Positions 24,060 through 24,200 of a stretch of 53,137 nucleotides of DNA are shown piece by piece. Location: IMG/VR virus record IMGVR_UViG_2645727867_000003; one strand, given 5' to 3'. Source of the stretch: a virus. Taxonomy: Duplodnaviria; Heunggongvirae; Uroviricota; Caudoviricetes. Position 1 is the first letter of the stretch, and each line of letters starts with the position of its first letter. Made by a program: the position numbers and the translations under genes. The notes below the pieces were generated by a model. It saw only the letters and a list, made by a program, of their open reading frames with translations. It did not search any database and was not told the origin of the DNA.

Positions 24060-24200
24060 GGCGTCTCATGCCGCAAATGTTAACTGCTGCCTGGTTAACA
24101 TTTGCTGAAAAAGCCTGTTAACATTTTTTCCACGCAACAAACTGAATAATAAAGATAAAAACCGCAAAATGCCCGGACAGCCAGTTAACATGTTAACTGC
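24060..24200. promoter_or_regulatory. cluster of GTTAAC-centred palindromes (candidate cos/terminase recognition region)
   Basis: CAAATGTTAAC-N9-GTTAACATTTG (24074-24104), CCTGTTAACATT (24114-24125), CAGTTAACATGTTAACTG (24182-24199), between the HNH and terminase small subunit genes. Confidence 0.4.

Follow-up and report, generated by a model that had tools for sequence, protein, structure and literature searches.

The GTTAAC repeats between the HNH endonuclease gene and the small terminase gene (terS) of the prophage studied here are probably the cosB-like recognition part of its cos, which the small terminase (TerS) would grip for packaging. This reading was reached by comparing sequences. 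The cluster lies between the inferred cut and terS, and for this reason it is assigned to recognition and not to cutting.

Identity of the prophage and layout of its packaging genes

The window, that is, the whole stretch of 53,137 nucleotides that was analyzed, is a lambdoid Stx prophage of the BP-4795/2851 type. It showed about 97% identity to BP-4795, to 2851, and to many Stx1a/Stx2a/Stx2c phages. Its packaging genes are all on the minus strand, in the order HNH (24656..24291), a 288-bp spacer, terS, terL, a prohead-protease::capsid fusion, and portal. The HNH gene (24291..24656, 121 aa; Pfam PF01844 HNH, E = 5.9e-7) encodes the accessory nuclease of an HK97-type cos packaging system, and it is directly upstream of cos-terS-terL in the window and likewise in the relatives. 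The terS gene (23439..24002, minus strand) has a GTG start and encodes 187 aa, with a PF03592 match at residues 2-57. The terL gene (21781..23442, minus strand) encodes 553 aa with PF03354 and PF20441, and its product is 48-60% identical to TerL of phages that include Bcep176 and Xp10. Positions given below with a plus sign are counted down the minus strand, with +1 at window position 24230.

The head genes occupy 16301-21717 (minus strand): terL is followed by a 645-aa prohead-protease::major-capsid fusion and then by portal (18204-19568, PF04860), after which come a 407-aa protein that had only sub-threshold Pfam matches and a connector. An ORF with DUF3950 (PF13132, E = 6e-20; 24638/24698-24898, plus strand) adjoins the HNH gene and diverges from it, on the strand opposite to the entire late operon.

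Among 5426 complete E. coli genomes, 1277 had the HNH-terS spacer, which occurred at 2997 places and reached seven copies in a single genome; the spacer of E. coli O91 RM7190 is 100% identical to that of the window. The carriers include Stx1, Stx2a, and Stx2c prophages as well as defective prophages.

GTTAAC repeats in the HNH-terS spacer

The octamer GTTAACAT occurs seven times in the 53-kb window (both strands) against 1.4 expected, a number that 0 of 100 shuffles reached; GTTAAC itself occurs 19 times against 8.8 expected. Five exact copies of the octamer fall within 24077-24197, in the 288-bp spacer: 24077-24084 (minus), 24094-24101 (plus), 24117-24124 (plus), 24184-24191 (plus), and 24190-24197 (minus). 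The repeat search arranged them in three elements. The one nearest to the HNH gene is a perfect 18-bp palindrome, CAGTTAACATGTTAACTG (24182-24199; +32..+49). The most distant is a perfect 12-nt inverted repeat, GCAAATGTTAAC / GTTAACATTTGC, with a 9-nt gap (24073-24084 and 24094-24105; +126..+158). A third, direct copy, GTTAACATTT, is at 24117-24126; its octamer (24117..24124; +107..+114) reads ATGTTAAC(A/T)GGC on the minus strand. The cluster thus spans +32..+158 of the left chromosome end. Between the palindrome and the direct copy there is an A+T-rich spacer with short T/A runs (24125..24181), part of a lineage-specific insert of about 190 bp. Spacings between the window copies are 8, 67, 23, and 15 bp, which is helically irregular. 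An earlier note on this DNA had described a cluster of GTTAAC-cored palindromes between the HNH and terminase small subunit genes, and our analysis confirmed it, with five octamers, three elements, and the flanking genes as claimed.

Several other readings of the spacer were discarded. The relatives conserve TGTTAA and not the full hexamer palindrome, so GTTAAC was dropped as an HpaI restriction site. One promoter-like match (24095-24124, plus strand) consists of the repeats themselves and is antisense to the late operon. A 41-codon ORF from the ATG at 24191 (minus strand) was rejected as a gene: 64 of 66 haplotypes have a frame-shifting extra T at 24170, and further indels occur, which makes the insert non-coding. 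The spacer contained neither an intrinsic terminator nor a known RNA family (Rfam).

Inferred cohesive end and flanking cos parts

From a PhageTerm analysis of Lys8385Vzw, an induced Stx1 phage, Zhang et al. (2021; PMC7946995) classified it as a cos phage with 3′ cohesive ends and located its cos, CGCCCCCCCT, at the genome end. The deposited record (MT225100) ends with ...GGACACCGCCCCCCCT and starts with CTCACGCAGAGAAAAAATTCCCGTTTCAGGGCAGTTAACATGTTAACTGG, and this end/start junction is colinear with the minus strand of the window from 24246 to 24181. Identity between Lys8385Vzw and the window is about 98.6% from the cut to terS and 87% in the left flank of the cut; the homologue of its cohesive end in the window is CGCGCCCCCT. 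Homology to this mapped phage predicts a 10-nt 3′ cohesive end, 5′-CGCGCCCCCT-3′, at 24231..24240 (minus strand), for which the nicks would fall at 24231/24230 on the minus strand and at 24241/24240 on the plus strand.

The record of the Burkholderia phage Bcep176, whose TerL is 58.5% identical, has the 10 nt CGCACGTTCC at both ends as a terminal redundancy. Its junction, CTAGAC/CGCACGTTCC/CTCACGCGCAGAAAATTTTCCC, aligns base for base with GGACAC/CGCGCCCCCT/CTCACGCAGAGAAAAAATTCCC of the window. Defined 3′ cohesive ends of about 10 nt are thus placed in the HNH-terS spacer by homology alone, to Lys8385Vzw and Bcep176. An isolate-derived IMG/VR contig (L032, IMGVR_UViG_2681813226_000009) starts at the equivalent of window position 24231, which may be an assembly break at the packaged DNA end. 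Other records were consulted for termini; those of vB_Pae_CF121c, vB_E354, phi330, and phiBt-TXDOH begin at arbitrary points, and the phi330 paper has no termini data.

The Lys8385Vzw homology and the Bcep176 junction put the cut 31 bp beyond the 18-bp palindrome. The interval 24060-24200 had been proposed as a candidate cos/terminase site. The proposal stands in that the spacer is the cos region and the repeats resemble terminase recognition elements, but the cut does not lie inside that interval.

Conserved parts were found on both sides of the cut. The right-end (upstream) part (24241..24290, minus strand) has seven consecutive G residues at 24276-24282, followed by GATCGC and, directly adjoining the cut on its left, GGACAC. 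Identity to Salmonella phage FSL SP-016 is 79% over this part, and Enterobacter, Citrobacter, Pseudomonas, and Burkholderia relatives keep both the G-run and (G/T)AGAC(A/C)C. The conserved left-end core (24211..24230, minus strand) is CTCACGCAGAG plus an A6 tract (+12..+17) plus TTC. About 60 relatives have it as C(C/T)CACGCA(C/G)AGA with a run of A6 or T6-7 directly after.

Conservation of the hexamer pair across relatives

TerS was too diverged for the collection of relatives, and a TerS-based scan of genome contigs found none, so TerL was used. Alignment of two TerL proteins gave 80 species-level relatives with TerL 58-84% identical. The cut core was recognizable in 61 of the 80, and the counts of motif positions were taken over these 61. 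The relatives with the footprint, around 60 at species level, range from Pseudomonas to Enterobacter.

TGTTAA was present at +35 (plus or minus 2) in 40 of the 61 relatives, and TTAACA at +46/47 in 39. The two hexamers enclose the terS start codon, in the arrangement TGTTAA-(A)TGGCT-TTAACA. Their density was 8.96 per kb in +1..+300 and 0.08 per kb over the remainder of these loci, an enrichment of about 110-fold. The motif is also visible in codon usage. Of 46 loci whose G+C content is 58% or higher, 40 use TTA for the N-terminal Leu of TerS, a codon that accounts for 0.85% of Leu in the adjacent terL; the six exceptions have other TGTTAA copies upstream. A+T-rich starts are favored in translation, and this could contribute to the TTA codon.

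Two relatives have independently displaced terS about 100 bp from cos: L096 (Paraburkholderia silviterrae) and L102 (Cupriavidus phytorum). In both, the cos-proximal TGTTAA..TTAACA pair is kept at +35/+45-47 without any ATG, CTG or TTG is used at the true start of terS, and the insert contains further TGTTAA copies (GATGTTAA). The window parallels them, with a displaced terS (100-190 bp across the three), the pair at +35/+46, and extra copies in its insert. Since the pair stays fixed relative to the cut when terS is displaced, the element is tied to the cut and not to the translation of terS. FSL SP-016 and the Enterobacter and Citrobacter relatives have the core pair alone, from which it follows that the three extra copies are not required.

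Arrays inside the coding region were observed in other lineages. In Proteus mirabilis ATCC 29906 (L089, positions 2075-2232; +242..+399), GTTAA(C/T) recurs every 12 nt, about eleven times in all, within the linker-coding part of terS, and yields (K/E/R)VN repeats in the protein; here a cis-acting DNA array appears to dictate protein sequence. Pseudomonas loci (L148, L132, L139, and others) have three tandem GATGTTAAAGC units inside terS at +229/+241/+253, which read DVKA-DVKA-HVKT and use GTT and AAA codons in loci of about 61% G+C.

The small terminase and its association with the repeats

TerS of this clade has three parts: an N-terminal HTH domain of about 55 residues, a variable linker, and a conserved C-terminal domain. 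The PF03592 match of the window TerS scored 35.7 bits (cut-off 26.1). A profile built from the TerS alignment matched the DNA-binding domains of SF6-type TerS proteins (4zc3/3zqp/2cmp) with E of about 1e-4; the single-sequence PDB search with TerS was not significant (E 0.18-0.7). By these profile matches, the TerS N-terminus is an SF6/SPP1-type HTH DNA-binding domain.

All 47 loci with the HTH-type TerS had the motif (38 recognized by tblastn and 9 by an M-A-L-T N-terminal sequence). Another TerS N-terminus is present in fourteen relatives that have the cut core and TerL in common with these loci, and none of the fourteen had TGTTAA at +25..+62. In most of these the N-terminus is short and rich in Arg and Gly, MAGVKGRSGGARPGAGRK, and AATCAAA/ATTCAAA/AATCAGCAAA repeats, two to four of them, take the place of TGTTAA. 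Loci of the Arg/Gly type are L094, L099, L105, L109-L112, L114, L117, L119, and L153. A third N-terminus, MVDWDVIEA, occurs in one relative (L130), together with three copies of GTACGAG. Where examined, the C-terminal domain of TerS is common to both main N-terminal types. The repeat type thus tracks the N-terminal type of TerS, the signature expected if the N-terminal domain reads the repeats. The association could also stem from linkage alone, as the upstream half-site is 5-10 bp from the first codons of that domain.

Rings of SF6-type TerS place adjacent HTH motifs about one DNA turn apart (PMC4737164), a spacing that the 12-nt arrays of Proteus and Pseudomonas would fit.

Core palindrome and probable origin of the other copies

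Read on the coding strand, GTTAACAT becomes ATGTTAAC, the codons for Met-Leu-Thr. The HNH-terS spacer is just about 100 bp long in FSL SP-016 and in Enterobacter, Citrobacter, and Phlomobacter prophages; that of FSL SP-016 has 79% identity to window positions 24184-24285. The terS ATG/GTG of each of the four falls within the sequence that corresponds to the 18-bp palindrome. That sequence is GT(T/A)AAC(A/G)TGTTAACAG in SP-016, Enterobacter, and Citrobacter and GTTAATATGTTAAC in Phlomobacter. Compared in this way, ATGTTAAC (Met-Leu-Thr) would be the ancestral terS start and 24182..24199 the ancestral start site, which accounts for the source of the copies. In the window family, the palindrome element and the real terS start are separated by an additional 190 bp or so. 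That start reads GTG CTG ACA, with the consequence that the TTAACA motif is lost there. The A+T-rich segment 24125..24181 is missing in SP-016, L087, and L129. Judged by its distribution, the palindrome is the universal core, and the three other copies are lineage-specific.

The extra copies probably arose from partial duplications of the 5′ end of terS. The minus-strand copy at 24101 opens a pseudo-N-terminus, MLTRQQLTFAA*, similar to the real MLTTQKRKFAL. The colinear alignment of the insert with the terS 5′ end was not significant (44/1000, 36/500, and 45/500 shuffles scored as well). Given this resemblance and this alignment, partial duplication is a likely but unproven origin, and we did not retain tandem duplication of the terS 5′ end as a demonstrated event.

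Polymorphism of the spacer in the E. coli family

We compared 66 distinct spacer haplotypes from IMG/VR loci whose TerS are 90-99% identical. Between the cut and terS, just one of the 38 motif columns varied (a singleton), compared with 39 of the 194 others (Fisher p = 0.008). One of 228 circular shifts of the motif mask did as well, and random placement of blocks gave p = 0.012. The low polymorphism of the motif columns is supportive and not decisive, as divergence is low and the sequences are related.

Among the 66 haplotypes, the copies of GTTAACAT showed one singleton change, falling in the core-palindrome copies. The palindrome (24182-24199) had three rare changes at its outer positions, 24198-24199. 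The copy at 24117..24124 was invariant, and its neighboring base 24116 is polymorphic (A/T). The copies in the inverted repeat were also invariant, with rare changes in the outer stem (24104-24105). The segment 24125..24181 was polymorphic and included indels that break the 41-codon ORF.

Comparison with known packaging systems

As in lambda cosB (R3-I1-R2-R1, bound by gpNu1, between cosN and Nu1), the window has short repeats in both orientations between the cut and the small-terminase gene. In both cases they are on the end that is packaged first, where the presumed role is to anchor TerS so that TerL nicks nearby. Position and repetition, taken together with the comparative evidence, make the window repeats putative TerS binding sites of the cosB kind. 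Lambda itself has 12-nt 5′ overhangs, a winged-helix TerS of the Nu1 type, and a required IHF site. The window differs in its 10-nt 3′ overhang, its Terminase_2/SF6-type TerS, and its HNH nuclease, and a search of 24003-24290 for the IHF consensus WATCAANNNNTTR, with up to one mismatch, gave no match. It is not a lambda-type cosB as to the IHF site, the Nu1-family TerS, or the 12-nt 5′ overhang.

In HK97, the TerS site of cos is at +15..+29 and includes a 9-bp A-tract, which TerS needs and whose orientation is unimportant (PMC11331095). The window resembles HK97 in its 10-nt 3′ overhang, in the HNH gene upstream of cos, and in having its recognition site downstream of the cut by a few turns. 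The HNH protein of HK97, gp74, assists cutting, and the HNH gene of the window is likewise upstream. PF03354 and PF20441 are found both in the window TerL and in HK97 gp2, so that the TerL_ATPase + TerL_nuclease architecture is common to them. The small terminases differ: HK97 gp1 has no HTH and no Pfam match, with DNA threaded through its channel, an arginine clamp, and a single site, whereas the window TerS belongs to PF03592 and has an SF6-like HTH. The gene order differs as well (terL-portal-protease-capsid in HK97; portal after the protease::capsid fusion in the window). The idea in the earlier note of HK97-like packaging is consequently borne out for the layout (HNH gene, 10-nt 3′ overhang, recognition site downstream of the cut) and fails for the small terminase family. 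As to its suggested comparison with cos of HK97, the window clade has an A6 or T7 tract at +12..+19, comparable in place to the HK97 A-tract; the left-end sequence of HK97 is unrelated to that of the window.

The pac sites of SPP1 and SF6 (repeats boxA/B/C; small terminase G1P) share with the window a TerS of the same family with an N-terminal HTH, and repeated boxes around the terS start. Under the wrap-around model proposed for this type of TerS, HTH motifs are about one DNA turn apart, and the 12-nt arrays of the relatives agree with it. SPP1 and SF6 package by headful from pac, without cohesive ends; the window clade has a 3′ cos by homology to its sibling Lys8385Vzw, which is classed as cos with 3′ cohesive ends and not as a headful phage. 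The isolated SF6 DNA-binding domain was reported to lack sequence specificity (PMC4737164), and the window clade differs in conserving an exact hexamer.

Ten-nt 3′ cos ends also occur in the Burkholderia siphophages phiE125/phi644-2 and in Bcep176; phi644-2 has a ten-base 3′ extension, CGCCCGCTTC (PMC2920897), and phages of the phiE125 type were compared on cohesive ends alone. The cos reports on Lys8385Vzw and the Burkholderia siphophages give the cohesive-end sequence alone and mention neither GTTAAC/TGTTAA repeats nor a TerS site. We found no description of the repeats in the literature searched; the cohesive end of the sibling was already published.

Proposed mechanism and alternative explanations

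In the mechanism that we propose, a TerS ring would bind (A)TGTTAAC elements just inside the left chromosome end through its N-terminal HTH domains. The 18-bp palindrome at +32..+49 would be the universal core site, and three further copies at +107..+154 would add to it. Bound TerS would bring TerL, assisted by the HNH nuclease, to the conserved core of the cut, which lies 31 bp upstream. Staggered nicks there would leave the 10-nt 3′ overhang CGCGCCCCCT (24231-24240), and packaging would proceed toward terS and terL. We infer from the comparisons above that TerS is what binds and that the extra copies add to the binding. The literature searched contained no binding or packaging experiments for this TerS family.

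In one alternative, the core palindrome (24182-24199) would alone be functional, the other three GTTAACAT copies (24077-24124) being neutral relics of duplications of the terS 5′ end. That ATGTTAAC is the terS start in SP-016, L087, and L088, that the pseudo-N-terminus at 24101 resembles the real one, that the insert can be aligned colinearly with the 5′ end of the real terS, and that relatives without the insert hold the core pair alone all fit such an origin. We consider neutrality plausible but less likely: decay has left the flanks without significant similarity (36-45 of 500 shuffles as good), and yet the three octamers are exact, the motif columns are under-polymorphic, the independent expansions in L096 and L102 also have extra TGTTAA, and Proteus and Pseudomonas relatives have arrays. 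In another, the protein that reads the repeats would be not TerS but TerL or the HNH nuclease, a nucleoid protein of the host, or the neighboring ribbon-helix-helix-like DUF3950 protein, whose gene adjoins the HNH gene. This is improbable, given that TerL, HNH, and the cut core are common to loci with different repeats, that the repeats track the N-terminal domain of TerS alone, and that the spacer lacks an IHF consensus.

A role at the RNA level would attribute the motif to tuning of TerS translation by an A+U-rich, weakly structured context or by a small hairpin at the terS start. The motif does enclose the start codon in most relatives, TGTTAA fills the spacer between the Shine-Dalgarno sequence and the AUG, and the leader folds somewhat better than shuffles (z = -2.2; 5/200 shuffles). 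The distance of the element is, however, fixed to the cut and not to terS; L096 and L102 keep it without a start codon, and the real terS start of the window has no such element. With no Rfam match, and with extra copies in coding linkers that have no obvious translational role, we regard an RNA function as very improbable. Recognition of the repeats by TerS, as part of cos, is the reading that we consider most likely.

Implications for terminase recognition

The selection of viral DNA by the small terminase is a long-standing question, and to our knowledge no specific sequence has been pinned down for the SF6/SPP1-type HTH TerS family. We suggest tentatively that the 6-bp TGTTAA/TTAACA is the specific half-site of an SF6-type HTH TerS, conserved from Pseudomonas and Burkholderia to the Stx phages of E. 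coli. It would be built around the terS start, forcing a rare TTA codon in high-GC hosts, and in some lineages 12-bp arrays would dictate the TerS linker (VN or DVKA repeats). If this is true, it would be a sequence-specific counter-example to the model of a non-specific HTH plus bent DNA for SF6-type TerS, and also a cis-acting packaging signal that shapes protein sequence.

The site would be a further example of a cos recognition subsite, for which the comparative footprint is unusually deep and clear. The clade gives an exact, phylogenetically footprinted pair of hexamers whose distance from a mapped cut is constant, and the relatives with swapped TerS N-terminal domains, which have different repeats, are natural controls. 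The footprinted hexamers and these controls make TerS-DNA recognition testable by gel shift and by transduction of cos plasmids. A shared cos and recognition site would let one functional terminase package several resident prophages, and such cross-packaging, if real, would bear on the mobilization of Shiga-toxin genes.

Insertion elements near cos

Insertion elements were seen close to this region in two cases. In PPompW-type prophages (L003, positions 3275-4733; PPompW_132418), an IS110-family ISEc20 is inserted just left of the cos G-run, at the equivalent of about 24279. The HNH and lysis genes are absent and the tRNA/Q genes come directly next; this would be a defective prophage that retains the cut site, the repeats, terS, and terL. 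In E. coli TB354 (L172, positions 1501-2308), an IS1 element lies about 110 bp upstream of terS, and the likeness to the window spacer stops 55 bp from terS, leaving a remnant without the cos region and the repeats.
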